Shown here: piece by piece, positions 6,900-27,952 of the stretch
Position numbering within the stretch: position 1 is the first letter of the stretch
Layout: each line of letters begins with the position of its first letter
DNA from: Candidatus Acidiferrales bacterium
GTDB lineage: Bacteria > Patescibacteriota > Microgenomatia > Levybacterales > UBA12049
DNA: 64,000 nucleotides
Direction: 5' to 3'
Assembly: GCA_035533875.1 (NCBI GenBank)
Contig: DATLSZ010000029.1
Span: 31,636 to 95,635 of the forward strand
The notes under the pieces: generated by a model
Database searches by the model: none
What the model saw: only the letters and a program-made list of their open reading frames with translations
Told to the model about the DNA's origin: nothing
Translations under genes and position numbers: made by a program

Positions 6900-8273
6900 A
6901 TGGCAGGAAAAGAAGGGTATACGCAACCTTTTACTGTAAACAATCTAAAACAGTTTATTCCTTCTCTGTATATTTCTCCTGAGAGTAGGATACCTTATGT
7001 GTGGGATGCGAGAGAGATAGAGAGACGAGGTTTTTCTGGAGGTTTGCTTGATCAGCATATCAGGCATTTTGATAGAAATTGGAAGGTCGAAGGACTACCA
7101 CCTGATTGGTTTCGGTTACAAAGTAAGACTGGCAGGCATATAGGATTTAGTATGAATTCTCAAATGGATCTTTTAGGTAATGTAACAAATTCAGAAGTAG
7201 CAACATGGATTCCAAAAACCGTACAGGATTTGCGCGGTTTTAAGCTGGAATATCTGACAGATCATATCGTATATCCCTGTAAGTATGAACGAAGCAGCAG
7301 TGATCCTACACGACTTGAAAATAGGCATTATGGGTACACCGATATCATTGATACGGTTTCAGCAGATGAGCGTGGTGGTTCGGTACGACGGAGTTTGCAA
7401 GAAATGAAAGCGTTTTTTTTGGACGATGATACTCCAGATGGCTCCATTGCTGTTATGGTAAGTCCGAGAGGAGAGACAGGGTTGAGAACCGACGATGGCA
7501 AACTCATACAGTACCCCGACTCTTATTTTTTCTTTATGGTTAAAGAGGGGGATACCGTTCATAATTTTACTTTGAAAACTGATTTTAGTATTGCTGAATG
7601 TCGAGACGTTATCGCGCGATTAACAGGTGTTACGCTGCCTGTTGATGCTCCACTTGAACAATATGTCCGGACAATTGCAAAAATTAAGCCCGGAGGTCAC
7701 GATGCAACTCCTGATGTAACGGAAATTGTTGGCGTCCTTGAACAGGTTCGACCGGAATATGCTTTTACATCTGAAGGCAGAAATGAAAAAATAACGTGGC
7801 GTGATGTCTATCAAGACATCCGTCAAAGAGATCAACTGTACGAGTTTAGTGAAAAAACAAACATGATTATTAATGAATTTGAAGCATATTGTCTTCAGGG
7901 CAATCATACAAAGTTGGAGTATCAAAAAGCCCTTGCGGCAACAATCCTACGAATGTCAAAGGTATTTTTTCTCGAAGAAAACTATCCGGAAGGGGCGGTT
8001 CCTTTAGTATCCAATCAATGGTCAACGGTGAGACCTCCGTTGGCTACGTATGGTGACGTTCTTACAGCTACAACAAAGCGTCCCGGCTGTTCGGGAGGAG
8101 GTTCCGGTGAATCTCTCTTTGTTAAGTCTCCTGACGGGGTAAGACGTGGTGAAACTGATTGGTTTACTTGTCCGAAGTGTCACTATAAAGCGGATGGTCC
8201 GATAGGCGATACGTGTCCAAAATGTAAAATAACAAAACAAGAATATGCCGAATCAGGAGGTAAGGCATGTTAA
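6900..8273 (+). CDS. hypothetical 458-aa protein with C-terminal double-CxxC zinc ribbon, under cobalamin-riboswitch control
   Basis: The six-frame ORF begins at 6846, inside the riboswitch. The ATG at 6900 follows the sequestered GAGGAG RBS. The C-terminus is CPKCHYKADGPIGDTCPKC. No recognisable catalytic motif. Confidence 0.6.
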   Translation: MAGKEGYTQPFTVNNLKQFIPSLYISPESRIPYVWDAREIERRGFSGGLLDQHIRHFDRNWKVEGLPPDWFRLQSKTGRHIGFSMNSQMDLLGNVTNSEVATWIPKTVQDLRGFKLEYLTDHIVYPCKYERSSSDPTRLENRHYGYTDIIDTVSADERGGSVRRSLQEMKAFFLDDDTPDGSIAVMVSPRGETGLRTDDGKLIQYPDSYFFFMVKEGDTVHNFTLKTDFSIAECRDVIARLTGVTLPVDAPLEQYVRTIAKIKPGGHDATPDVTEIVGVLEQVRPEYAFTSEGRNEKITWRDVYQDIRQRDQLYEFSEKTNMIINEFEAYCLQGNHTKLEYQKALAATILRMSKVFFLEENYPEGAVPLVSNQWSTVRPPLATYGDVLTATTKRPGCSGGGSGESLFVKSPDGVRRGETDWFTCPKCHYKADGPIGDTCPKCKITKQEYAESGGKAC

Positions 8274-8280
8274 TAACGTC

Positions 8281-8430
8281 ATGAAGAATACCAATGATTG
8301 TGATATCTGTTACAAAATTATTTGCCGGCAGTGCGGGTGGGAAGCTGATGACGGTGCTGTGTTACAGATACAAAAAGGAGAGATGACTGCTTGCCCTCTA
8401 TGTGGTTGGCAACCCGGAGAAGATAGGTAA
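8281..8430 (+). CDS. rubredoxin-like small metal-binding protein (three CxxC pairs)
   Basis: CRQCGWEADDG and CPLCGW resemble the rubredoxin CxxCGY...CPxCG knuckles. Spacing between them is shorter than in canonical rubredoxin and there is an extra CDIC. The start is ambiguous (8245 or 8281). Confidence 0.4.
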   Translation: MKNTNDCDICYKIICRQCGWEADDGAVLQIQKGEMTACPLCGWQPGEDR

Positions 8431-8526
8431 TAAAGAGAAGATCAAAAGCTGCATCAAAACTATAAGTTTATTTAATAATTAAAGGACATATTCTTCTCGT
8501 CTTAAAAAGACCTACTATAACCGCAT

Positions 8527-8555
8527 TTGACATCCCATAATATTTATACTATAAT
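8527..8555 (+). promoter_or_regulatory. consensus sigma70 promoter TTGACA-N17-TATAAT, 9 nt upstream of the ATG at 8565 (leaderless transcript predicted)
   Basis: Exact consensus hexamers with a 17-nt spacer read in the sequence. The -10 ends 9 nt before the start codon. Confidence 0.55.
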
Positions 8556-8564
8556 ACCTTCATT

Positions 8565-8906
8565 ATGTCAGCAGAATGGCGAGTTACTCGTCCAGAAAAT
8601 GTAGACCCTAGAATCAAAGAAGCAAGGGTAGAAGCGCAACTTAATGAATTTGCGTCTAATAGGCGTGCTTTAGCAACAAGTAGAGGTTTGAAGGCTTGGG
8701 GTTTTGGTACAGCACTTGCTGGAGGAGCAGTTGTTTTAGCTGCTACTGCATTACTACCTTTCGTCCCGGCCGCCGCAGTTACCTATGTTGCTGCATCCGC
8801 AGCAGTAGGTAGTTTTGCATGGCCATTGGGTCTTTTGGTCATGGGCTTTGGTAAAGCAAAAGAATCTGTTAACGGTTTCACAAGAAACAAGCTAGCTAAA
8901 GCCTAA
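8565..8906 (+). CDS. small membrane protein (two TM helices)
   Basis: Hydrophobic Ala/Gly/Leu-rich segments; no other motif recognised. Confidence 0.5.
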   Translation: MSAEWRVTRPENVDPRIKEARVEAQLNEFASNRRALATSRGLKAWGFGTALAGGAVVLAATALLPFVPAAAVTYVAASAAVGSFAWPLGLLVMGFGKAKESVNGFTRNKLAKA

Positions 8907-8917
8907 ACTTTACCACT

Positions 8918-9247
8918 ATGGAACCTTCATATAAAGATCTGCTTTTACAAGTTCTTACGGTAATGGGTTACCGAAACAAAGAGACCTATGCTACGGAATT
9001 TGAAGAGACGAATCATATAGAAGCAGTGACGAACTGTATGGAGATGCTTCCTGTTTCTCTACGAGAAAAAATAAAAACAAAAGAGATTGATGCTGCAGAG
9101 GCTATAAAGAATATCCCTCATGACCTCTATGAAAAGGAATTAACAACAGTATCCACAACCGCGCTTTTTTCATTACTTGATTATATGAGACCAGTGCTTA
9201 CCAATGACCAAAAGCAAGAAATAGTCGATATCATTACCGCTTATTAA
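8918..9247 (+). CDS. hypothetical protein
   Basis: 109-aa ORF lying in the operon between 8565 and 10013. Confidence 0.45.
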   Translation: MEPSYKDLLLQVLTVMGYRNKETYATEFEETNHIEAVTNCMEMLPVSLREKIKTKEIDAAEAIKNIPHDLYEKELTTVSTTALFSLLDYMRPVLTNDQKQEIVDIITAY

Positions 9248-9293
9248 TCTGCATTTCATTGTTTCGGGAGCCTTATCATGTTAATATAGGAGT

Positions 9294-10010
9294 ATGGATC
9301 CGAGTACACCTGCTGCCCAAGACGTGCAGAATCAAACGCCTGCTGATCAGCCTGTAAATCAAGCGCAACAGGCGACATCAGTGCCTCCTGATAATACGGC
9401 ACAACCTGCGTCGCAACCGCCACTACCGAAGCCGCAAGCGCCAAAGCATCAGATATCAGTGGGTAATATAGAAGCAGGATCTTCTGTCGTTGAGGATGGA
9501 GATGAGGATGACGATGACGAAGAATTGATGGTTTCTCCTCAGGAAACCAAGAATCGGATGGTTCTGGGACAGAATGAAGGAGAAGACGAAGATGAGACAG
9601 CCACAGTTGTCGCAGGTCAGCAAGGTGTCGCAGATATCCAGGAAAATGTGGAGTTACAACCTTCAGCGCCCGAATTGTCAGTAACAGGGAGTCCTGAGGT
9701 TGAGAAAGTTATTGAGCGTACTGCAGATCAGGAGAAGCCTGCGATACCGAAAGAAGTGATGGATGCGGGAGTTACCCATTCCGGTCCTGGTGTGATCATG
9801 GTTGAGCAGCAGAATAACTTTGGAGTTACGCAGATGCCGATATCCTATCAGCAGGCAGCTGTGCAGATAAAAAAAACAAAGTTTAAACAGTCCAAGCACT
9901 GGCTTTTGGGAAAGATCATGTATATCTGGAGGAAGCTGCAAACAAAAACAAGTAAGGAGAAAATGCCAGAAGAAGATACGCAAGAAGAAAACAGTATAGT
10001 ATTACCATAA
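9294..10010 (+). CDS. acidic, low-complexity (Q/P/D/E-rich) hypothetical protein
   Basis: Runs of DGDEDDDDEE and a Pro/Gln-rich N-terminus. It stops 3 nt before the next gene. Confidence 0.45.
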   Translation: MDPSTPAAQDVQNQTPADQPVNQAQQATSVPPDNTAQPASQPPLPKPQAPKHQISVGNIEAGSSVVEDGDEDDDDEELMVSPQETKNRMVLGQNEGEDEDETATVVAGQQGVADIQENVELQPSAPELSVTGSPEVEKVIERTADQEKPAIPKEVMDAGVTHSGPGVIMVEQQNNFGVTQMPISYQQAAVQIKKTKFKQSKHWLLGKIMYIWRKLQTKTSKEKMPEEDTQEENSIVLP

Positions 10011-18887: not shown

Positions 18888-19984
18888 TGAATTCCAGAAA
18901 TTGTTGATGCTTTTTTGTGGATCTTGGCGATAAAAAATCCTTCCATTGTTTCACTTGGGAAAACTCTAGCGCAGTTTTGTGTATGCTTGAAATTTTTCTT
19001 TTTCCATGCTGTTAAACTGTTTTGCAATTGCACATTTGGCATTGTTATTTTTTCAACTGTTAGCGCGTCTGGTGTTTTATCAACGACCCATTCAATTACT
19101 TCTTCGTTTTCTTCTGGCGAAAGAGTACATGTTGAGTAAACAATGATTCCTCCTACTCTTGTCGCGGATATAGCTGAGCGAAGTAAATACTTTTGCAATT
19201 TTGATAATTGTTTTACTTTTTTCGGCGACCAATCCTGATACGTTTTTGGATCACCACAACGGACCCGTCCTTCCATAGAGCAGGGGACATCAACAAGTGT
19301 TTTATCAAAATATTCAGGATAAAATTGCCAGATTCGTTCACCATGTATGTTGGTGATCAGAAAACTCGGAATACCCTGGGAATCGGATGACCTGAGAGTC
19401 AGAAATTCAGAGATGCTGGCAATCTGATTGCTCTGAGTTTTCTGGAAAGGAATACCATAGTCGTTTAATATTCGCTCCATTTTATATAACCGTGGACGAC
19501 TGATATCGTTTGCAACTATAGTAGCTTTATTTTTTGTGATTGCTGCGATCATTGTTGCTTTGCTTCCAGGGGCAGCGGTAATATCAAGAATTTTTTCATT
19601 TGTTTGAGGATCAAGTGTCAAGACAGGTATCATACTTGAGAGATTTTGGATATATAACAACCCATTTTTATATTCATCCGTTCCTGTTAGCTCAGGGATG
19701 GATTTGTTTTTGAGAATGAATGCATCGGGATACCAGGATACCCTTTCAACATCAAATCCTTGTTTGATTAATGATTTATTTAACGATTCTGTAGTAGTTT
19801 TTATTGTATTGGTCCGAAAAGATGGAAGCGTATTGTTCGAAAGCGCCTCAAGTAAATTATTAAATTCTTTCTCGGAATATATTTTTTTCCATCTATCCAG
19901 CATTTGTTCAGGTAAATTTTGACAGAGATTCATAGTTCTTATTATACAATATTGATTGTACAGGAGTAAAATTACCTCTTGCAT
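18884..19984 (-). CDS. RsmB/NOP2/Sun-family RNA m5C methyltransferase
   Basis: SAM-binding and catalytic motifs IVANDISRPR and DVPCSMEG ... YSTCTLSPEENEEVI. An alternative start lies at 19933. Confidence 0.75.
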   Translation of the reverse strand: MQEVILLLYNQYCIIRTMNLCQNLPEQMLDRWKKIYSEKEFNNLLEALSNNTLPSFRTNTIKTTTESLNKSLIKQGFDVERVSWYPDAFILKNKSIPELTGTDEYKNGLLYIQNLSSMIPVLTLDPQTNEKILDITAAPGSKATMIAAITKNKATIVANDISRPRLYKMERILNDYGIPFQKTQSNQIASISEFLTLRSSDSQGIPSFLITNIHGERIWQFYPEYFDKTLVDVPCSMEGRVRCGDPKTYQDWSPKKVKQLSKLQKYLLRSAISATRVGGIIVYSTCTLSPEENEEVIEWVVDKTPDALTVEKITMPNVQLQNSLTAWKKKNFKHTQNCARVFPSETMEGFFIAKIHKKASTISGIH

Positions 19985-20014
19985 TAATTATTATATACTA
20001 GTATAATAGTACGT

Positions 20015-20299
20015 ATGAATAAGCCCAGTCTTACTCATTTAATTGAGTTATTGTTTTCAGTGCAGTCCAAGAAAGAAATGGAAGCGCTGCTTCGTGCTAT
20101 ACTGACTCCGCAGGAATTGGAGGAATTACCGAAACGGCTGATGATTTTTGAACAATTGAAAAAAGGTACTCCGCAGCATGAGATTGCCAAAAAAATTGGA
20201 GTGGGTGTCGCGACTGTTACCCGCGGATCTCTTGAAATACAGCGGGGACAAATTCAGAAAACTTCCTGGTGGCAAAACCTTTCTCAAATGAGAGGCTGA
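20015..20299 (+). CDS. Trp-repressor-like (TrpR/YerC/YecD family) DNA-binding protein
   Basis: LTPQELEELPKRLMIFEQLKKGTPQHEIAKKIGVGVATVTRGS matches the YerC/TrpR helix-turn-helix. A TTGCAT-N18-TATAAT promoter ends 6 nt before the ATG. Confidence 0.7.
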   Translation: MNKPSLTHLIELLFSVQSKKEMEALLRAILTPQELEELPKRLMIFEQLKKGTPQHEIAKKIGVGVATVTRGSLEIQRGQIQKTSWWQNLSQMRG

Positions 20300-20364
20300 T
20301 TGCCGCGTTTATTTAATCATAAATGTATCAATGAACCTCCCATCATGAGAGTTTTTTTATTTTT

Positions 20365-21717
20365 ATGAAAGTATTACCGAAAATAACAATTGGACAAAAA
20401 CCATCATATGTTACCTTTGCAAAAGATGTTGATATCTATTCATTGTTTCAAAAGATAGAACAGACATTTGACAGGTGTTTTATTTTTGAGTCACTTGGTG
20501 AGGAAGGGAAGTTTTCCCGCTATTCAATTATTGGTTTTGAACCGCAACATATAATATCGGCAAGAGAAAACGTTTTAAAGATCGATAAGACCGAATATCC
20601 TGTCGATAATCCGTATACTGTCCTCCGTCAAATTATGCCGGAAACGGTTATTGCCAGGGAGTATGCCGGAGGTCTTGTCGGATATCTTAGCTATGATGCA
20701 GTTAATTATTTTGAACCGTCTATACAAGTTAAGGTCCATGATGCGTTTGACCAATTTATGTTTGGTGTTTATACGGACGGGCTTATTTATGATAAAGTAA
20801 CCAATGAACTCCAATATTTTTACTATGATACAAACAGGCTGCCGATGATTAAAGCAATAATGCAGCAAAAGAAACCCTCGAAAAACAAATTGAAAGTAAC
20901 ATATCTGAGAGATACATCGACAAAAAAAGAACATGCGGTAACTGTTGAAGGAGTTAAAGAGCAGATTAGAGCCGGTAATACATTTCAATGTGAAGTCGGA
21001 TTCAAAACAGAATATCAGATAGAAGGCGATGCATTGGAAATTTATGAACGGTTGCGGGAGACAAATCCTTCTCCGTTTATGTATTATTTAAAGTTTGATT
21101 CCAAGAAAATTATCGGTTCGAGTCCCGAATTATTATTCTCTTTGCGTGACGGAGAGATGACAGCAAAGCCACTCGCTGGAACGATAGGTAGAGGGAAAAA
21201 TAAGCTAGAAGATCAGAAGTATGCTCGAGAATTGATTCATGACCCCAAAGAGATTGCAGAACATAATATGCTTGTCGATTTGCATCGTAACGATATCGGA
21301 CGGGTGGCACAATTCGGCACGGTGAAGATACGAGAATTATTGGGAATTAAAAAGTTCAGTCACGTACAGCATATTTCAAGTGAAATTGTCGGTATAATAA
21401 AAAACGGTGAAGATATGTTCTCCGGACTTGCTGCAAATTTTCCTGCAGGTACTTTGAGCGGTGCACCGAAAATTGAATCGATGAAAATCATAGATGGAAA
21501 TGAAAAAGAAGCAAGAGGTCCATACGGCGGGGGAGTAGGCCATTTCGGATTTAACGGAGATTGTACATTTGCTATTGCAATTCGGTCTTTGTTTGTTTCC
21601 GGCAAATACGCATATGCACAAACAAGCGGTGGGATTGTTGCAGATTCGATTCCTGAAAAAGAATATGAAGAAATACAGAATAAGCTAGCAGCGATGAGGA
21701 AGGTTTTGAAAATATGA
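20365..21717 (+). CDS. trpE: anthranilate synthase component I
   Basis: Chorismate-binding enzyme motifs are present: LVDLHRNDIGRV and GTLSGAPK. Confidence 0.9.
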   Translation: MKVLPKITIGQKPSYVTFAKDVDIYSLFQKIEQTFDRCFIFESLGEEGKFSRYSIIGFEPQHIISARENVLKIDKTEYPVDNPYTVLRQIMPETVIAREYAGGLVGYLSYDAVNYFEPSIQVKVHDAFDQFMFGVYTDGLIYDKVTNELQYFYYDTNRLPMIKAIMQQKKPSKNKLKVTYLRDTSTKKEHAVTVEGVKEQIRAGNTFQCEVGFKTEYQIEGDALEIYERLRETNPSPFMYYLKFDSKKIIGSSPELLFSLRDGEMTAKPLAGTIGRGKNKLEDQKYARELIHDPKEIAEHNMLVDLHRNDIGRVAQFGTVKIRELLGIKKFSHVQHISSEIVGIIKNGEDMFSGLAANFPAGTLSGAPKIESMKIIDGNEKEARGPYGGGVGHFGFNGDCTFAIAIRSLFVSGKYAYAQTSGGIVADSIPEKEYEEIQNKLAAMRKVLKI

Positions 21718-22310
21718 ATGTTTTAATTATCGATAATTACGATTCATTTACGTTTAATCTCTACCAGTATATTGGTGAAATTTTGATGAAAGAAAATAGT
21801 CAGTTTACGATAGACGTTGTGCGAAATGACGAACTAACTATAAACGAAATTAAGAAACGAAACTATGACCGGATTGTTATCTCACCCGGTCCGGGTGATC
21901 CGAGTGACAAGAAATATTTTGGTGTCTGCTCTGATGTTATTCCTAAGTTAGGAAAAGATGTTCCAATACTTGGGATTTGTCTTGGGATGCAAGGGATTGC
22001 GTCGTCATTCGGCGGGGATATAACCAAGGCAAAAAAACCGATGCATGGCAAGACAAGTATTATTGTTCATGATGGCAAGGGAATATTTACTTCATTACCA
22101 CAGGATTTGGAAGTGATGCGGTATCATTCGCTTATTGTTTCGAAAAATAACTTGCCTACTAGTCTGGAAATAACAGCAACCACAGGAGCTGAAATAATGG
22201 GATTGCGGCATAAAACGTGTCCAATCGAAGGCATCCAATTCCATCCCGAGTCTTTTGCGACAGAAGCAGGAAAGAAGATGCTTGAGAATTTTCTTTCTGG
22301 TGTAAAGTAA
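21714..22310 (+). CDS. trpG: anthranilate synthase component II (glutamine amidotransferase)
   Basis: IDNYDSFTFNL, the catalytic GICLGMQ, and the HPES histidine motif. Confidence 0.9.
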   Translation: MNVLIIDNYDSFTFNLYQYIGEILMKENSQFTIDVVRNDELTINEIKKRNYDRIVISPGPGDPSDKKYFGVCSDVIPKLGKDVPILGICLGMQGIASSFGGDITKAKKPMHGKTSIIVHDGKGIFTSLPQDLEVMRYHSLIVSKNNLPTSLEITATTGAEIMGLRHKTCPIEGIQFHPESFATEAGKKMLENFLSGVK

Positions 22311-22312
22311 CT

Positions 22313-23332
22313 ATGAACACGATTTATTATTTAAACAAACTGGTTGATAAACAAGATCTTACGGGAGATGAGATACGGTCATTATTTGCTGCTGTTTCAA
22401 AAGGTGAACTTGATCCAATACAGATTGCAGCGGTTCTTATTGCGTTACGGATGAAAGGAGAAACGGTTGAGGAAATTGGCAGTTTGATACAGGAGATGCG
22501 GTCACATATCGTTGACTTTCCTGCATATCCTGATGCAATAGATACGTGCGGGACAGGGGGAGACGGCACAGGGACATTTAATATCTCTACAACTGTTGCA
22601 TTTGTTGCCGCAGGTGCGGGGATTCAAATTATCAAACACGGCAATAAAGCAGCGAGCAGTAAGTGCGGCAGTGCTGATGTTTTGTCGGAACTCGGGGTCA
22701 ATATTATGCTTACTCCAGAGCAAGCGAATAATGTCTTTAAAAAGGTCGGGATGGTGTTTCTTTATGCATCGCTTTATCATCCAGCGATGAAATATATCGC
22801 ACCTGTCAGAAAATCTCTCGGGACGAGAACTGTCTTTAATTTCCTCGGACCATTTCTAAATCCTGCGCAGGTAAAGCGGCAACTGATCGGTGTCCCCAAT
22901 GCAGAATTGGCTGAGAAATTGGCAAAAGTTGCTGCAACATTGCAATATGAACATGCTGTTATAGTTTCAAGTAATAGCGGGATGGATGAGATGGATGTAT
23001 CCGGCGCAACAACAATATATGAAATACGAGGGAAGAGTGTTTTAAAGAAAAGCGTTAATCCGCAAACGCTAGGATTTAAAAAAACTAATTCTCAAGAAAT
23101 GCATGGAGGGAGTATGGCTGAAAACGCACAAATTATCCGAGACATTCTCTCAGGTAAAAAAGGGGCAAAGAGAGACGTTGTTGTCTTGAATAGTGCATAT
23201 GCATTGTATGTTGCAGGAAAAGTAAAAGATATTCGTGATGGTATGAGACTGGCAGAATTATCAATTGACAGTGGCGAAGCGAAAAATATTTTGGATAACC
23301 TAGTAAAGGAGACAAGGAAATATGAAAAGTAA
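22313..23332 (+). CDS. trpD: anthranilate phosphoribosyltransferase
   Basis: CGTGGDGTGTFNISTTVAFVAAGAG matches the TrpD phosphoribosyl-binding region. Confidence 0.9.
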   Translation: MNTIYYLNKLVDKQDLTGDEIRSLFAAVSKGELDPIQIAAVLIALRMKGETVEEIGSLIQEMRSHIVDFPAYPDAIDTCGTGGDGTGTFNISTTVAFVAAGAGIQIIKHGNKAASSKCGSADVLSELGVNIMLTPEQANNVFKKVGMVFLYASLYHPAMKYIAPVRKSLGTRTVFNFLGPFLNPAQVKRQLIGVPNAELAEKLAKVAATLQYEHAVIVSSNSGMDEMDVSGATTIYEIRGKSVLKKSVNPQTLGFKKTNSQEMHGGSMAENAQIIRDILSGKKGAKRDVVVLNSAYALYVAGKVKDIRDGMRLAELSIDSGEAKNILDNLVKETRKYEK

Positions 23333-24806
23333 ATCTCAAGAACCAAATAATAAATCACAAAAGTTTTTAGAAAAAATTATTGCGAAGAAAACTAAAGAGT
23401 TTGTTCGGACAACTCAGAAGACTCAGAAACCCAGCATGTCAGATTTTCAGATAGTCAGAATTTCAGATATTCCGAGTAATCAGAGTTTTCTGAAGATCTT
23501 TGATTTGGAAAACAAAAAGAAGATCGGGCTGATCGCCGAAGTGAAATTCGCGTCGCCGACGAATCCGCATCTTGGCTCTCCAGATGATTTATTACAACGA
23601 GTTGAACAATATGATCAAGCGGGTGCAGGTGCAATTTCTTTTATTACGGAAAAACATTATTTTAAAGGAGATACTCGTTTTATTCCGCAGATTAAAAAGG
23701 CGGTAGATCTACCAATTCTGCAGAAAGATTTTATCATCGATGAACAGCAGATTTATGAAGCAAAACAAATAGGGTCCGATGCGCTGCTTTTAATCGCGCG
23801 TCTCGTTGATAAAGAAACTCTTAAACAATTTGTCGATCTCTGTTTGGAATTGCATGTTGAGCCGGTGGTTGAAATTAATTCCGACGACGATTTGAAAAAA
23901 GCTGTTGCAACAAAGACAAATATTATCGCAGTTAATGCTCGGGACTTGGAAACATTTGAGATTGATGTAAAGAAAGCATGTCTTTTGATGAGAAAGATTC
24001 CGGACCGGTTTATTAAGCTTGGTTTCTCAGGCATTCAGTCTGTAAAAGAAGTTTTGCAATATAAAAATGCAGGAGCAAACGGGGTACTGGTAGGAACAAG
24101 TTTGATGCAGGCGAAAGATATTAAAATGTTTGTTAAGAGTTTGCAGGTTTTGCCAGAAGCTCCTTCCCGACGTACTCACCAAGACGGACAAGTACAAGTG
24201 AAAATTTGTGCGACAAGAAGTATTGAAGCGGCACAAATTGCAGTAGATAATGGTGCGGAATTTTTGGGATTGGTGTTCACACCACTGATTAAGACGCATA
24301 CTGTTGATCGGAAAGTAGCTGCGCAAATCGGAAAAGAAATGAAAGGGAAAATTCAGTTAGTCGGTGTATTTCAAAATATGCCGCTTGAAGAAGTCCAAGC
24401 GATAATAGCTGAATGTAATTTGGATTATGCGCAATTTCATGGAGATGAGACGCCGGAATATATTAATCAAATAAAGATAAAGATCATAAAAGCGTTCCGG
24501 TTCCCAGGTGTTGTTAATCTTAAGCAAGCAAGGAAGCAGATGAAACAGTATACTGTGGACTATTACTTAGTCGATCGTATTAAACAAAGTGAAGGGCCAA
24601 TACTTGATCTGAATATAGTCAGTATCCTTGCGAAAGAGTTTCCTTTAGTTTTCGCCGGTGGTTTGAACACCGAAAATGTAACTGATGTTATAAAAATAGT
24701 AAAACCAAAAATGGTCGATGTTGCATCTGGGGTGGAGACAAACGGACAGCAAGATATGAAAAAAATAAAACAGTTTATTAAAAATGCAAAAGGAGTAACT
24801 ATATGA
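23322..24806 (+). CDS. trpCF: bifunctional indole-3-glycerol-phosphate synthase / phosphoribosylanthranilate isomerase
   Basis: The N-terminal half has IGPS motifs (IAEVKFASP, SFITEKHYFKG). The C-terminal half has a PRAI motif (VKICATRS...). Confidence 0.85.
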   Translation: MKSKSQEPNNKSQKFLEKIIAKKTKEFVRTTQKTQKPSMSDFQIVRISDIPSNQSFLKIFDLENKKKIGLIAEVKFASPTNPHLGSPDDLLQRVEQYDQAGAGAISFITEKHYFKGDTRFIPQIKKAVDLPILQKDFIIDEQQIYEAKQIGSDALLLIARLVDKETLKQFVDLCLELHVEPVVEINSDDDLKKAVATKTNIIAVNARDLETFEIDVKKACLLMRKIPDRFIKLGFSGIQSVKEVLQYKNAGANGVLVGTSLMQAKDIKMFVKSLQVLPEAPSRRTHQDGQVQVKICATRSIEAAQIAVDNGAEFLGLVFTPLIKTHTVDRKVAAQIGKEMKGKIQLVGVFQNMPLEEVQAIIAECNLDYAQFHGDETPEYINQIKIKIIKAFRFPGVVNLKQARKQMKQYTVDYYLVDRIKQSEGPILDLNIVSILAKEFPLVFAGGLNTENVTDVIKIVKPKMVDVASGVETNGQQDMKKIKQFIKNAKGVTI

Positions 24807-24867
24807 AAAGTTCCTTCGGCTCACTGCGTTCGCTCAGGATGACTTTAGTTATTAGAAGGGAGAATCA

Positions 24868-26088
24868 ATGAGATCACATTTTGGGAAATTTGGAGGGAAA
24901 TATGTTCCGGAGATGCTGATTCCTGCTCTTGAAGAATTGGAGGCGGCTTATGAAAAGGCAAAAAAAGATAAAGAGTTCAGGAAAGAATTTCAGCATTTGT
25001 TAAAAAATTTTTCAGGGCGTCCGACGCCGCTGGTCTATGCTGAAAGTCTCACTAAGAAGCTTAATGGTGCAAAAATTTATTTGAAAAATGAGGGACTCAA
25101 TCACACAGGGGCACATAAAATAACCCATTGTATCGGGCAGGCATTGATTGCAAAGAGACTCGGGAAAACACGTCTTATTGCTGAAACTGGTGCCGGTATG
25201 CATGGTGTCGCGACAGCGACAATTGCTGCGAAATTTGGATTTTCCTGCACAGTCTATATGGGAGAAACAGATGTTGCCAGACAGCGGCCGAATGTCTTTT
25301 TGATGGAACAGTTGGGAGCAACGGTCGTGCCGGTTAGTTTTGGAAATAGAACACTCAAAGATGCGGTGAATGCTGCGATAAAAGATTGGATAGAACATAT
25401 CGAAGATACGCATTATTTGTTGGGTTCTGTTCTTGGTCCGCATCCGTATCCGACAATGAATCGTGATTTCCAGTCTATTGTCGGGAGAGAAATAAGAAAG
25501 CAATTGAAAGAGTTTGAAAATAAGATGCCCGATGTTGTTATAGCGTGCGTATCTGGAGGCAGCAACGCGATGGGAGCTTTTACCGATTTTATCAAGGAAG
25601 ATTCGGTTGAACTAATCGGTGTTGAAGCAGGAGGTACTGGAAAGAATATCGGAGAGCACGCAGCACGATTTGGCGGGAGTGGAACAGTCGGTGTTGCGCA
25701 GGGATACAAAACATATTTCTTGCAGGATGAAGACGGGCAATTACAAAAGACACATAGTATTTCGGCAGGACTTGATTATGCCGGAGTAGGACCGGAAATT
25801 TCGTATCTGCAGGGAAAAGGAAGGCTGCAGATGGTGTCAGCGACAGATAAAGAAACACTTAACGCTGTCCAGACACTGGCAAAGACAGAAGGGATTATCC
25901 CGGCGCTTGAGTCTGCACACGCAATTGCACATGCAATAAAACTTGCACCGACACTTCCGAAGGACAAAGTCATTGTTGTCAATGTTTCGGGAAGAGGAGA
26001 TAAGGATCTTTTTATTCTGACAAGAGCATTCAAGGATAAGAAATTTTATGAGTTTATGCAAGATGAGGTGGAGCATGGGTATGAATAA
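24868..26088 (+). CDS. trpB: tryptophan synthase beta chain
   Basis: GKFGGKYVPE and the PLP lysine motif HTGAHKI. Confidence 0.92.
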   Translation: MRSHFGKFGGKYVPEMLIPALEELEAAYEKAKKDKEFRKEFQHLLKNFSGRPTPLVYAESLTKKLNGAKIYLKNEGLNHTGAHKITHCIGQALIAKRLGKTRLIAETGAGMHGVATATIAAKFGFSCTVYMGETDVARQRPNVFLMEQLGATVVPVSFGNRTLKDAVNAAIKDWIEHIEDTHYLLGSVLGPHPYPTMNRDFQSIVGREIRKQLKEFENKMPDVVIACVSGGSNAMGAFTDFIKEDSVELIGVEAGGTGKNIGEHAARFGGSGTVGVAQGYKTYFLQDEDGQLQKTHSISAGLDYAGVGPEISYLQGKGRLQMVSATDKETLNAVQTLAKTEGIIPALESAHAIAHAIKLAPTLPKDKVIVVNVSGRGDKDLFILTRAFKDKKFYEFMQDEVEHGYE

Positions 26089-26872
26089 GATTGATCAACA
26101 GTTACAGGTAATAAAAAAAGAAAAGCGTATCGCTCTTATGACGCATGTCGTTGTCGGGTATCCGAGTGTGCAGGATACGGTTTCAATAGTCAGCGCTATG
26201 GGAGAGTCGGGTGTTGATTTTGTAGAACTGCAGATCCCGTTTTCTGATCCTTTGGCGGACGGGCCGACTATTATGAAGGCATGTGAAGAGTCGCTGGCAA
26301 ACGGAACAAAGGTTGCGGATGCGTTTCGTGTTATGCAGGAGCTTTCATCACAAGTTATGATCCCATTATTATTTATGGCATATTACAATACGGTTTTTAC
26401 GTATGGTGTTGAGAAGTTTTGTCGGGACGCAAAAGCAGCTGGGGTAAGCGGTTTGATCGTCCCTGATATGTCAATTGATGAGGAACAACATGAGCATTTC
26501 TATGCGCTTGCAAAAAAGTATGGTCTTCATGTTATTCATGTCATCTCACCGGTATCAACGCCGGAGCGTCTCAAGAAGAACGCAGCAATGGCCAGAGGGT
26601 TTGTTTATTGTACCGCTCGTCAGGGGATAACCGGTGCAAAGAGAGATCTTGATCCCACTCTCAGGAATTATCTTAAGAAGGTGAAGACTTATTTCTCTAT
26701 TCCTGTTGCTGTTGGATTTGGTATTTCAAAAAAAGAGCACATAGAAGCTTTGCAAAATGAAGCAGATATAGCGGTGATCGGAAGTGCGTTGATTGATGTT
26801 CTGAGAAACACAGAGAAGAGCAGTCGAGGAGCGGCAGTCAAGCAATTCCTCAATGACTTACGCATTGAATAA
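26081..26872 (+). CDS. trpA: tryptophan synthase alpha chain
   Basis: The TrpA fold is evident (YPS..DTV, ELQIPFSDPLADGPTI). The start overlaps the trpB stop (ATGAATAA). An alternative start is at 26075. Confidence 0.88.
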   Translation: MNKIDQQLQVIKKEKRIALMTHVVVGYPSVQDTVSIVSAMGESGVDFVELQIPFSDPLADGPTIMKACEESLANGTKVADAFRVMQELSSQVMIPLLFMAYYNTVFTYGVEKFCRDAKAAGVSGLIVPDMSIDEEQHEHFYALAKKYGLHVIHVISPVSTPERLKKNAAMARGFVYCTARQGITGAKRDLDPTLRNYLKKVKTYFSIPVAVGFGISKKEHIEALQNEADIAVIGSALIDVLRNTEKSSRGAAVKQFLNDLRIE

Positions 26873-26900
26873 GTTTTGCGGATGACTTACAATACAACGT

Positions 26901-27887
26901 ATGAAGCAAAAACGAGTATTATCAGGAATTAGAGCGACCGGGAGACTGCATCTCGGGAATTATTTGGGTGCGATAAAAGGGATGCTTGCATTGCAGAACG
27001 ATCCTGATTTTGAAACGCTCTATATGGTCGCTGACTTACATACGATTACAACGCCATATGCTGTTGAGGAGCTCAAAAAGAACAGACGAGAAGTAATTAT
27101 TGATTATCTTGCGGCAGGACTTGATCCGCAGAAGAGTATTCTTTTTCAGCAAGCTGCCAATCCGCATCATGCAGAGCTCGCATTTTATCTCTCAAGTGTT
27201 GTGACGATTGCCAAGATGCAGCATTTGCCGACCTTTAAAGATAAGGTCAAACAACATCCTCAGCATGCAACGATGGCACTTCTGAATTATCCGATTCTCA
27301 TGACAGCAGATATTCTTGCGTATAAAGCATCGGATGTCCCGGTCGGTATTGATCAGGAACCGCATCTGGAAGTCGCAAGAGAAATAGCACGACGGATGAA
27401 TCAGGATTACGGGACTGATTTTCCCGAACCAAAGAGTTTTAAATCGACAGGTGACTATGTGCCGTCTCTCACCGGAGAAGGGAAGATGAGCAAATCTGTC
27501 GAGGGAAGTTATGTTAATTTGGTTGATGATTTGGAGACGATTAAAGCAAAATTGGCAAAAGCACCGACTGACTCAGGTAAAGGTACGCTTACTGCTATGG
27601 TGGCAGGAGTTTCTTCGCTGCTTACGTTTGTGCAATTATTTGAAGGGAAAGAAAAAAGAAATGCTTATGAAGATGCATATCAAAAAGAGGGAATCCGGTA
27701 TGGAGATTTAAAGAACGAATTGGCAGAAGCAATATTTAAAGAATTACAGCCGATTCACGAGAAGAGAAAAGAACTTGAAGCGAATCCGAAAGAAGTTGAT
27801 CGGATTATAGAGGAGGGCAATGAAAAAGCACGTACAATTGCTGCAGAGACAGTAAATGAAGTTAGAGAAAAAATGGGGCTCTTGTAA
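26901..27887 (+). CDS. trpS: tryptophan--tRNA ligase
   Basis: A HIGH-class motif variant (TGRLHLGNY) and KMSKS; the length is typical of TrpRS. Confidence 0.9.
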   Translation: MKQKRVLSGIRATGRLHLGNYLGAIKGMLALQNDPDFETLYMVADLHTITTPYAVEELKKNRREVIIDYLAAGLDPQKSILFQQAANPHHAELAFYLSSVVTIAKMQHLPTFKDKVKQHPQHATMALLNYPILMTADILAYKASDVPVGIDQEPHLEVAREIARRMNQDYGTDFPEPKSFKSTGDYVPSLTGEGKMSKSVEGSYVNLVDDLETIKAKLAKAPTDSGKGTLTAMVAGVSSLLTFVQLFEGKEKRNAYEDAYQKEGIRYGDLKNELAEAIFKELQPIHEKRKELEANPKEVDRIIEEGNEKARTIAAETVNEVREKMGLL

Positions 27888-27926
27888 AAGTATCAAGAGT
27901 ATCAGGGGTATCAAAAGTATCAAGGG
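27887..27926. repeat. tandem 9-bp repeat (GTATCAAGA-like, about four units)
   Basis: AAGTATCAAGAGTATCAGGGGTATCAAAAGTATCAAGGG read directly, lying between convergent genes. Confidence 0.7.
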
Positions 27927-27952
27927 CTTACATTATTTTTAGAGAATAGAAT

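Follow-up and report, generated by a model that had tools for sequence, protein, structure and literature searches.

A Trp-repressor gene at the head of a complete trp block, with a putative operator and an attenuator-like RNA, in a candidate CPR genome

The 64,000-nt window analysed here (contig DATLSZ010000029.1 of assembly GCA_035533875.1, positions 31,636 to 95,635) carries a block of eight genes, trpR-trpE-trpG-trpD-trpCF-trpB-trpA(-trpS), which probably forms one Trp-regulated operon controlled, as in E. coli, by a repressor and an attenuator, with the parts rearranged. The first gene encodes a regulator of the Trp-repressor family, a putative TrpR-type operator lies on its promoter, and the last 30 nt of trpR together with the 65-nt gap before trpE are predicted to form a conserved, four-segment attenuator-like RNA. 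We further propose, with chances that we regard as evenly divided, that a single open reading frame (ORF) may be both trans-acting repressor and cis-acting sensor, responding to free Trp as corepressor and to charged tRNA-Trp through ribosome stalling at the sequence SWWQNLSQMRG-stop. On this proposal the fusion would define a Levyibacteriota-like clade, and the element would be part of a wider, undescribed Microgenomates family of Trp/aromatic attenuators that has no Rfam model.

The regulator had originally been labelled TrpR/YerC-like. Its place in the Trp-repressor family was borne out, PF01371 matching at 65.4 bits against a cut-off of 27, with residues 6-88 aligned to positions 3-86 of the 88 in the model. 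The YerC part of the label was not, as the matches to TrpR were the stronger ones in NCBIfam, in the PDB and in Foldseek. The best NCBIfam match was TIGR01321 (trp operon repressor) with 57.7 bits, below its equivalog cut-off of 67.25, while TIGR02531 (YerC/YecD) gave 21.9 bits, below a cut-off of 42.2. In a sequence search of the PDB, E. coli TrpR came first (E = 4e-9), and YerC-like entries followed at E-values of at least 1e-3. The AlphaFold2 model of the monomer, with a predicted local distance difference test score (pLDDT) of 91.5, places helices at residues 3-15, 19-29, 32-49, 54-61, 65-77 and 84-92, so that the six-helix TrpR fold is present in the prediction; its top Foldseek matches were the E. 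coli TrpR structures 1tro, a complex with the operator, and 1trr (TM-score 0.79-0.80, 30% identity to E. coli TrpR). The recognition helix (helix E) reads GVATVTRGS, compared with GIATITRGS in E. coli. Residues R41, R70, T31, T67 and G71 correspond in the alignment to E. coli R54, R84, T44, T81 and G85, which we take to form the corepressor pocket, the arginine pair sandwiching Trp. A set of 23 homologs shows no variation at R41, T67, R70 and G71, and at least 90% of its members keep T31.

The survey of related loci (given L numbers) covered the best 80 of 587 GTDB species genomes that encode a relative of the regulator, with some further contigs of close relatives added, and same-strand trp genes follow the regulator gene in 60 of these 80. 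The original prediction would have been undermined by a regulator grouping with YerC paralogs unlinked to trp genes; the grouping found was with TrpR, and the linkage recurs in those 60 genomes. A regulator of the YerC/YecD type, devoid of any role in Trp control and adjacent to the trp genes by coincidence, would sit well with the sub-threshold TIGR01321 score and the weak TIGR02531 match, and the YerC/YecD proteins of Firmicutes (PDB 3kor, 3frw, 3g1c) do have the helical fold and the Pfam family in common with it. Their identity to the regulator is nonetheless 20-23%, against 30% for E. coli TrpR, and the protein is far nearer to TrpR than to YerC-like proteins by both sequence and fold. Together with the trp linkage and the presence of an E. 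coli-like CTAG operator, this makes the YerC assignment extremely unlikely. By sequence the regulator is best described as TrpR-proper-like.

The near-consensus leaderless promoter that had been proposed upstream of trpR was recovered (TTGCAT, 17 nt, TATAAT, 7 nt, ATG). No Shine-Dalgarno sequence precedes trpR, the 7-nt distance leaving no place for one, and since this distance between the −10 hexamer and the start codon is also constant, the trpR transcript is presumably leaderless. Taken alone, the string TATAAT-N7-ATG is not significant, with three matches in the window against 1.2 expected. The divergent rsmF-like methyltransferase gene on the minus strand has the geometry of trpR, with TATAAT at 19941-19946, 7 nt from the ATG at 19933; this ATG (M18 of the longest ORF) is probably the true start of that gene. 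The pattern CAT-N7-ATTATA is kept in relatives.

The −10 hexamer of trpR lies within the putative operator TACTAGTATAATAGTA, the sole such site in the window. Of the 80 related loci, 74 have the operator 16-mer, at up to two mismatches, next to the start of trpR. The layout that the upstream regions of the 80 loci have in common is TTGACA, about 4 nt, TACTAG nn TACTAGTATA(A/C)TAGTA, 2-4 nt and ATG. Away from trpR, 1.19 Mb of related flanks yielded two weak matches with two mismatches, one of them inside a coding region; considered as candidates for additional regulon members, both were judged to be chance. The E. coli trp operator sequence used for comparison was confirmed upstream of trpL in 5,422 of 5,426 genomes. 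Window and E. coli operators (GAACTAGTTAACTAGTAC and ATACTAGTATAATAGTAC, respectively) are identical at 13 of 18 positions, and both have CTAG cores spaced by 8 bp with the −10 hexamer at the dyad centre. As the only operator is at the trpR promoter, the regulated unit would be the trpR-headed operon itself, autoregulated by TrpR. An operator palindrome had been suggested for the gap between trpR and trpE, but neither a CTAG nor an operator-like palindrome occurs at 20300-20364, the site being instead the one on the −10 box upstream of trpR.

That gap measures 65 bp, as first reported, and had been considered too short for a T-box, with the consequence that regulation should probably be protein-mediated. 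No T-box was found: Rfam searches at gathering thresholds gave no match (T-box, Trp_leader RF00513 or others) in the window or in nine related loci, and at E ≤ 10 returned only noise, such as Phe_leader at 17 bits (E = 3.7). Protein-mediated control stands at least in part; the exclusion of control by RNA does not, given the conserved attenuator-like RNA found there. Its sequence is conserved in the alignment with close relatives, and an independent assembly has the same terminator sequence as the window. Segment 2 is made by the last codons of trpR before the TGA, and the antiterminator that it would form with segment 3 (−16.8 kcal/mol, z = −3.6; −21.6 kcal/mol in the related locus L003) encloses a helix AUUG/CAAU and an inner hairpin (20305-20326). 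Further downstream, a U7-A-U5 tract (20352-20364) directly abuts the trpE ATG at 20365. All 13 close relatives have a canonical terminator at this place, 25-39 nt after the trpR stop and with energies of −9.5 to −15.7 kcal/mol, composed of AACCUCUCA, 3-6 nt, UGAGAGGUU and a U-run. Because this terminator usually abuts the next start codon and leaves no room for a separate promoter, the following gene in these relatives could be expressed by read-through only.

Several lines of comparative evidence support the predicted pairing. RNAalifold, applied to 14 sequences in an alignment that ended before segment 4, returned 16 pairs, four of them with compensatory changes. In the MAFFT alignment 97.3% of cells were paired, compared with 92.0 ± 0.9% in shuffles, none of 500 reaching the observed value, and with 38-56% when the partner was slid; the covariation score of the antiterminator was 0.179 vs 0.079. 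A covariance model (CM) built from the close clade and searched over 1.36 Mb recovered the window element, with a score of 91.7 bits that is ordinary among its relatives, and 41 further loci, at or just after the 3′ end of trpR with one exception (L059). In the alignment fitted to the model 94.8% of cells were paired, sliding lowered this to about 50%, and several pair types were seen at most positions. The terminator arm and its partner co-vary across lineages (CCUCUC/GAGAGG, CCUCCC/GGGAGG, CCCUCC/GGAGGG, GCCGCC/GGUGGC, CCCCGC/CGGGG), and of 46 loci tested for the upstream partner of the terminator arm, 28 had one better than 95% of the dinucleotide shuffles.

The codons for W85 and W86 are the only Trp codons in trpR and lie immediately upstream of segment 1, and TGG at their position is conserved in the CM alignment of the 41 loci. 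In loci with a short TrpR of 82-84 aa, which ends in ...FKNV, the trpR stop codon is also the starting point of a mini-ORF and the homologous RNA comes next; among the encoded peptides are MKNIDKSKSSNWQSLLNREV..., MKKIINSSYWWIINSF..., MITKTIIILLNWWWKKVY... and MNIKIIYTYWQKWYFERRR... Trp-containing mini-ORFs in relatives span 14-25 aa and include strings such as ...NWWWKK..., ...YWWII... and ...NWQNLS... The WQNLS motif and its nucleotides, TGGCAAAACCT(T/C)TC, are common to these separate leader peptides and to the TrpR tail of the window, SWWQNLSQMRG, and for this reason the 94-aa TrpR resembles a repressor that carries its leader peptide in the same frame. Constraint on the 3′ end of trpR at the RNA level is suggested by two observations: in L088 an insertion shifts the trpR frame, yet UUGAGAGGCUGA is retained, and identity at synonymous sites, 0.39-0.55 over codons 1-80, is higher over codons 81-94, at 0.64-0.67.

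The products of the block are poor in Trp. TrpE, G, D, CF, A and S contain none and TrpB one, making a single W in 2,478 aa, as against a Trp frequency of 1.16% in the 38 other proteins of the window. Trp-poor products are also found in relatives, non-biosynthetic cargo included. Such avoidance is what would be expected of proteins made during Trp starvation.

Read together, these features would imply the following course of transcription initiation, repressor binding, ribosome stalling and termination. Transcription would start leaderless at the trpR ATG, and a Trp-bound TrpR dimer on the CTAG-type palindrome at the −10 box would repress trpR itself along with all the genes that follow. Under a shortage of charged tRNA-Trp, a ribosome would stall at W85-W86 (20267-20272) and cover segment 1, leaving segment 2 free to pair with segment 3 as an antiterminator, and RNA polymerase would read into trpE. 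When Trp is plentiful, the ribosome would reach the TGA at 20297-20299 and cover segment 2, and segments 3 and 4 would form the terminator before the U-run. The C-terminal tail of TrpR would in this way serve as the leader peptide, while the Trp-poor enzymes could still be made during starvation. Transcription of trpS would come both by read-through from the regulated promoter and from a leaderless-type promoter of its own.

A number of observations weigh against this model, in addition to the sub-threshold TIGR01321 score of the regulator. Its support is wholly computational, the broader alignment is itself fitted to the CM, and the taxonomy rests on record titles, some of which conflict. Within the close clade segments 2, 3 and 4 are near-uniform, covariation being found mostly in the inner helices and between clades. 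The synonymous rise over the last trpR codons is modest. The counterpart of W85 in E. coli TrpR is Trp99, a structural residue, and a helix is predicted for the tail, so its Trp codons may be kept for the sake of the protein structure. There is no precedent for a leader of 94 codons, which moreover requires tight coupling of transcription and translation on a leaderless mRNA. In the window, segment 3 is CCUCCC and segment 4 is GAGAG-U, and the best hairpin between them reaches −3.2 kcal/mol.

This last point bears on how much of the attenuator still works. Restoring two consensus bases in the window terminator brings it to −12.9 kcal/mol. Because these two base changes have weakened the stem, attenuation in this organism is probably weak, leaky or lost, with TrpR repression as the main control. 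Taken to its end, the argument would make TrpR the sole Trp-responsive control here and the gap element a decayed relic without effect, and the gap between −3.2 kcal/mol and the −9.5 to −15.7 kcal/mol of the 13 relatives, together with the two lost bases, lends this some weight. We nevertheless consider it rather unlikely: the window has kept its antiterminator, both adjacent Trp codons and the long U7-A-U5 tract intact, its CM score is no lower than the range of its relatives, and even a weak hairpin, with a perfect U-tract after it, may pause the polymerase or partly terminate transcription.

The hairpin could also act differently, masking GAGAGG of segment 4 as the Shine-Dalgarno sequence of trpE by pairing with segment 3, or serving merely to terminate trpR, in either case with no part for stalling at Trp codons. 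GAGAGG does lie 8-15 nt before the downstream start codon in relatives, and the two states of the switch would expose or hide it equally well. The spacing between GAGAGG and ATG is however not constant and in many cases exceeds what a Shine-Dalgarno sequence allows, a U-run always follows the hairpin as is typical of intrinsic terminators, and the Trp codons just upstream of segment 1 are conserved in 41 loci, dedicated mini-ORFs included. An action on translation or as a plain trpR terminator is accordingly improbable.

Other leader-like sequences were noted among the relatives. The one CM match away from trpR (L059, 7318-7412) follows trpA in a region (7250-9721) where another promoter-like site precedes a mini-ORF rich in aromatic residues, MKISRQANYFWFYFTPQREVL; a homologous antiterminator/terminator comes next and then genes for 3-deoxy-D-arabino-heptulosonate 7-phosphate (DAHP) synthase, aroB and aroQ, as read by eye and not by family-library scan. 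This locus resembles a leader-peptide attenuator for aromatic amino acids and suggests that such attenuation is more widely used in these bacteria. Two further conserved leader classes occur after trpR homologs (immediately after trpR in L016, L017, L029, L030, L040, L044, L062, L068 and L073; L015, L023, L028, L042 and L055), one with ...GGnCAGGGGTTAGTTTGGC... and the other, of about 130 nt, with ...GGAAGGTTGGAACCGG...; neither had an Rfam match at gathering thresholds. In a trpR-trpB(-trpS) subgroup (L033, L034, L036, L048, L049, L050, L063, L077 and L081) TrpR ends in ...NWR-stop, followed by a conserved spacer GCCACCACTTCATTTCA...AACCT without an obvious terminator, which may be another Trp-codon-sensing variant.

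Table 1. Genes and putative control elements of the trp block, in window coordinates.
Feature	Position	Strand	Description
−35 hexamer TTGCAT	19979..19984	+	17-nt spacer to −10; relatives mostly TTGACA at this place
Putative TrpR-type operator TACTAGTATAATAGTA	19996..20011	.	CTAG and ATAG cores with 8-bp spacing; −10 box at the centre
−10 hexamer TATAAT	20002..20007	+	7 nt before ATG 20015; spacing kept in relatives
trpR	20015..20299	+	94 aa, first gene of the putative operon; Trp_repressor PF01371, 65 bits
Tandem Trp codons W85 W86	20267..20272	+	Proposed ribosome-stall site, 8 codons before the stop
Segment 1 CCUUUC	20278..20283	+	Pairs with segment 2: hairpin CCUUUC/GAGAGG in the minimum-free-energy fold of 20255-20367
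Predicted antiterminator	20288..20343	+	Segment 2 UGAGAGG (20289-20295) pairs with segment 3 CCUCCCA (20336-20342)
Predicted degenerate terminator	20333..20364	+	Weak hairpin GAACCUC..GAG-A-GUUU, then U7-A-U5 into the trpE ATG
trpE, anthranilate synthase I	20365..21717	+	450 aa, 0 Trp; Anth_synt_I_N + Chorismate_bind
trpG, glutamine amidotransferase	21714..22310	+	198 aa; GATase
trpD, anthranilate phosphoribosyltransferase	22313..23332	+	339 aa; TIGR01245, 402 bits
trpCF fusion	23322..24806	+	Single 494-aa ORF; indole-3-glycerol-phosphate synthase (IGPS) residues 16-274, phosphoribosylanthranilate isomerase (PRAI) 293-488
trpB	24868..26088	+	406 aa; TIGR00263, 598 bits; GGGAG Shine-Dalgarno upstream
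trpA	26081..26872	+	Probably 263 aa; TIGR00262, 228 bits
Putative trpS leaderless-type promoter	26865..26893	+	TTGAAT 26865-26870, 17 nt, TACAAT 26888-26893, 7 nt to ATG 26901
trpS, bacterial-type tryptophan-tRNA ligase	26901..27887	+	328 aa, 0 Trp; TIGR00233, 291 bits

The block itself was as complete as had been claimed. Between 20015 and 27887 there are eight intact, co-directional ORFs on the plus strand without internal stops, identified by Pfam and NCBIfam profile matches as trpR-family, trpE, trpG, trpD, fused trpCF, trpB, trpA and trpS (Table 1). All seven activities leading from chorismate to tryptophan (TrpE, G, D, F, C, B and A) are encoded and intact, alongside the tryptophanyl-tRNA synthetase (TrpRS), and the frameshifts or stops that could have spoiled the reading are absent from every trp gene. 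No homologs of DAHP synthase, AroB or AroQ, and no other shikimate genes, were found in the 64-kb window. The junctions are tight, with overlaps of 4 nt between trpE and trpG and of 11 nt between trpD and trpCF, and a gap of 2 nt between trpG and trpD; the loose exception is the 61-nt spacer between trpCF and trpB (24807-24867). The longest trpA ORF begins at 26048, and a start at 26081 is favoured because of the GGAG at 26069-26072 and the lengths of 262-266 aa in relatives; trpA then overlaps trpB by 8 nt. The single frame of trpCF points to a genuine TrpC-TrpF fusion. The two genes are fused in this genome only, being separate and overlapping in all relatives examined.

Two intergenic stretches of the block were noted in passing. 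The 61-nt spacer holds ...CTTCGGCTCACTGCGTTCGCTCAGGATGAC..., and similar strings of a hairpin plus CAGGATGAC(A) are intergenic in L013, L061 and L071, so the string may be a small dispersed repeat. On the 3′ side of trpS, positions 27888-27952 contain four 10-nt repeats, aaGTATCAagaGTATCAgggGTATCAaaaGTATCAaggg, between the trpS stop and the stop of a convergent Exo_endo_phos-like gene, and no canonical terminator.

The claim that the operon was fused to trpS is correct as regards adjacency, trpS following trpA after 28 nt, and incorrect if understood as a fusion of proteins. The sequence TACAATACAAC..ATG of the putative trpS promoter is conserved in L002, L003, L006, L084 and L089 even where the upstream gene differs, and 21 of 45 loci have a perfect TA[TC]AAT at a distance of 6-8 nt from the trpS start codon. 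A promoter of its own would give basal TrpRS expression while the operon is repressed.

Almost all of the best 80 loci belong to metagenome-assembled genomes (MAGs) of the Microgenomates group of the Candidate Phyla Radiation (CPR), namely Levyibacteriota, Roizman-, Davies- and Gottesmanbacteria. Record labels are at odds with this in places: proteins identical to those of the contig are named 'Candidatus Acidoferrales bacterium', several assemblies having the identical regulator, and many Microgenomates-like MAGs bear what seem to be placeholder names such as 'uncultured Gammaproteobacteria bacterium'. Such labels are no safe guide to taxonomy. The remainder of the window has typical CPR content, such as PMT_2/TPR glycosyltransferases, DUF2298 and a class II ribonucleotide reductase, and we infer that the host is a Levyibacteriota-like CPR bacterium. 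The reduced genome that had been surmised for it is thus probable, its nearest relatives being CPR MAGs (Levyi-, Roizman- and Daviesbacteria) and related genomes measuring 1.1-1.2 Mb (the complete chromosome of L075; a 1.2-Mb contig in L009). The L086 contig comes from an error-prone nanopore assembly. A metagenome scan with the regulator protein retrieved two loci and added little.

What follows the regulator gene varies. In the 60 loci with same-strand trp genes, these amount to trpS only in 27, trpB in 16, a full or near-full trpE..A set in eight, trpE(G), often ended by the contig end, in six, and trpBA in three. The commonest gene downstream of trpR homologs is trpS (45 of 80 loci), which is therefore, rather than the pathway, the most constant partner of the regulator. 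In sister genomes with the same flanks (L084, 9352-11273; L089, 375-2341), a 400-419-aa protein and an Asp/Glu racemase replace trpEGDCFBA between trpR and trpS. The former has no match in Pfam, NCBIfam or the PDB; both lack Trp and are preceded by the operator and attenuator seen in the window, and they may represent a novel route of Trp salvage.

The patchy distribution of trp genes among relatives, and the different cargo held between trpR and trpS by syntenic sister genomes, could indicate that the trp block is a recently acquired island, brought by horizontal gene transfer (HGT) into an otherwise auxotrophic CPR genome. The codon-frequency correlation is in line with this, at 0.86 between the block and the rest and 0.97 between halves of the other genes. 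A comparison of GC content and codon usage, proposed earlier for detecting HGT, gave no compositional sign of it, with a GC content of 0.406 in the block and 0.410 in the rest, and a GC content at third codon positions (GC3) of 0.356 against 0.386 ± 0.054, within one standard deviation of the other genes. Synteny with the closest relatives extends over more than 10 kb, from a gene for an ATPase resembling those of type IV secretion systems (T4SS) through M10 peptidase, rsmF-like, trpR ... trpS and Exo_endo_phos to HhH-GPD, and the same order and flanks recur in several of them. TrpE homologs form a large clade, with more than 120 clusters at 68% identity or more, mostly CPR where named. Recent acquisition is on this evidence very unlikely, and a complete trp pathway, which had been singled out as notable in a reduced genome, is instead recurrent in CPR. 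In some groundwater Patescibacteria, trpA and trpB were reported in 15-18% of MAGs (PMC8672522).

CPR bacteria, or Patescibacteria, are usually portrayed with minimal regulation and biosynthesis. The locus suggests that a whole CPR group runs a two-layer control of Trp, repressor plus attenuator, with E. coli-like parts in a rearranged form: the operon would begin with its own repressor gene and be transcribed without a leader, no cargo gene would be as conserved as trpS, and one clade would have its leader peptide fused to TrpR. If true, this would be a compact natural case of the 3′ end of a protein-coding gene doubling as an attenuator leader, and would provide a new RNA family for annotation. 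It would also offer a handle on functions switched on under Trp limitation, be they full synthesis, indole salvage of the trpB(A) type, or the novel 400-aa protein with its racemase.

That Microgenomates may have a trp repressor gene linked to one for TrpRS has been mentioned before, in a passing remark on archaeal-type TrpRS paralogs (Mukai et al., 2017; PMC5370408). That remark described no operator, attenuator or biosynthetic genes, and no other earlier mention of trpR-TrpRS linkage in CPR was found in the literature. The T-box control of trpS and trp genes in Gram-positive bacteria follows the same logic as proposed here, induction as the charging of Trp-tRNA falls; there, uncharged tRNA is bound, whereas in the window sensing would be by ribosome and repressor.

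In Chlamydia trachomatis, trpR likewise heads a self-repressed operon, trpRBA, with an intergenic element after trpR (PMC7755916; PMC6504234), and the trpR-trpB(A) arrangement of many relatives of the window resembles this indole-salvage layout. The chlamydial intergenic region is 348 bp long and holds a second promoter and a YtgR operator (PMC7755916; PMC6504234), and the annotated 59-aa TrpL, so far unvalidated, is considered poor as an attenuator (PMC7755916). The spacer of the window is by contrast 65 nt, has no promoter, and carries a conserved, covariation-supported attenuator-like element.

A close parallel in parts is with the trp control of E. coli. Both systems have a Trp-repressor protein with a near-identical recognition helix and the arginines of the Trp pocket; a CTAG-type operator, putative in the window, on the −10 hexamer; and, before trpE, tandem Trp codons, alternative 1:2, 2:3 and 3:4 hairpins, which in the window are predicted and include a weak 3:4 stem, and a U-run. 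The differences lie in their arrangement. The window has no Rfam Trp_leader match, its terminator is weak, and trpS is included. E. coli trpR is unlinked, whereas in the window it would be the first gene of the operon on a leaderless transcript, and the Trp codons, placed in a 14-aa peptide in E. coli, stand here at the end of the 94-aa repressor ORF.

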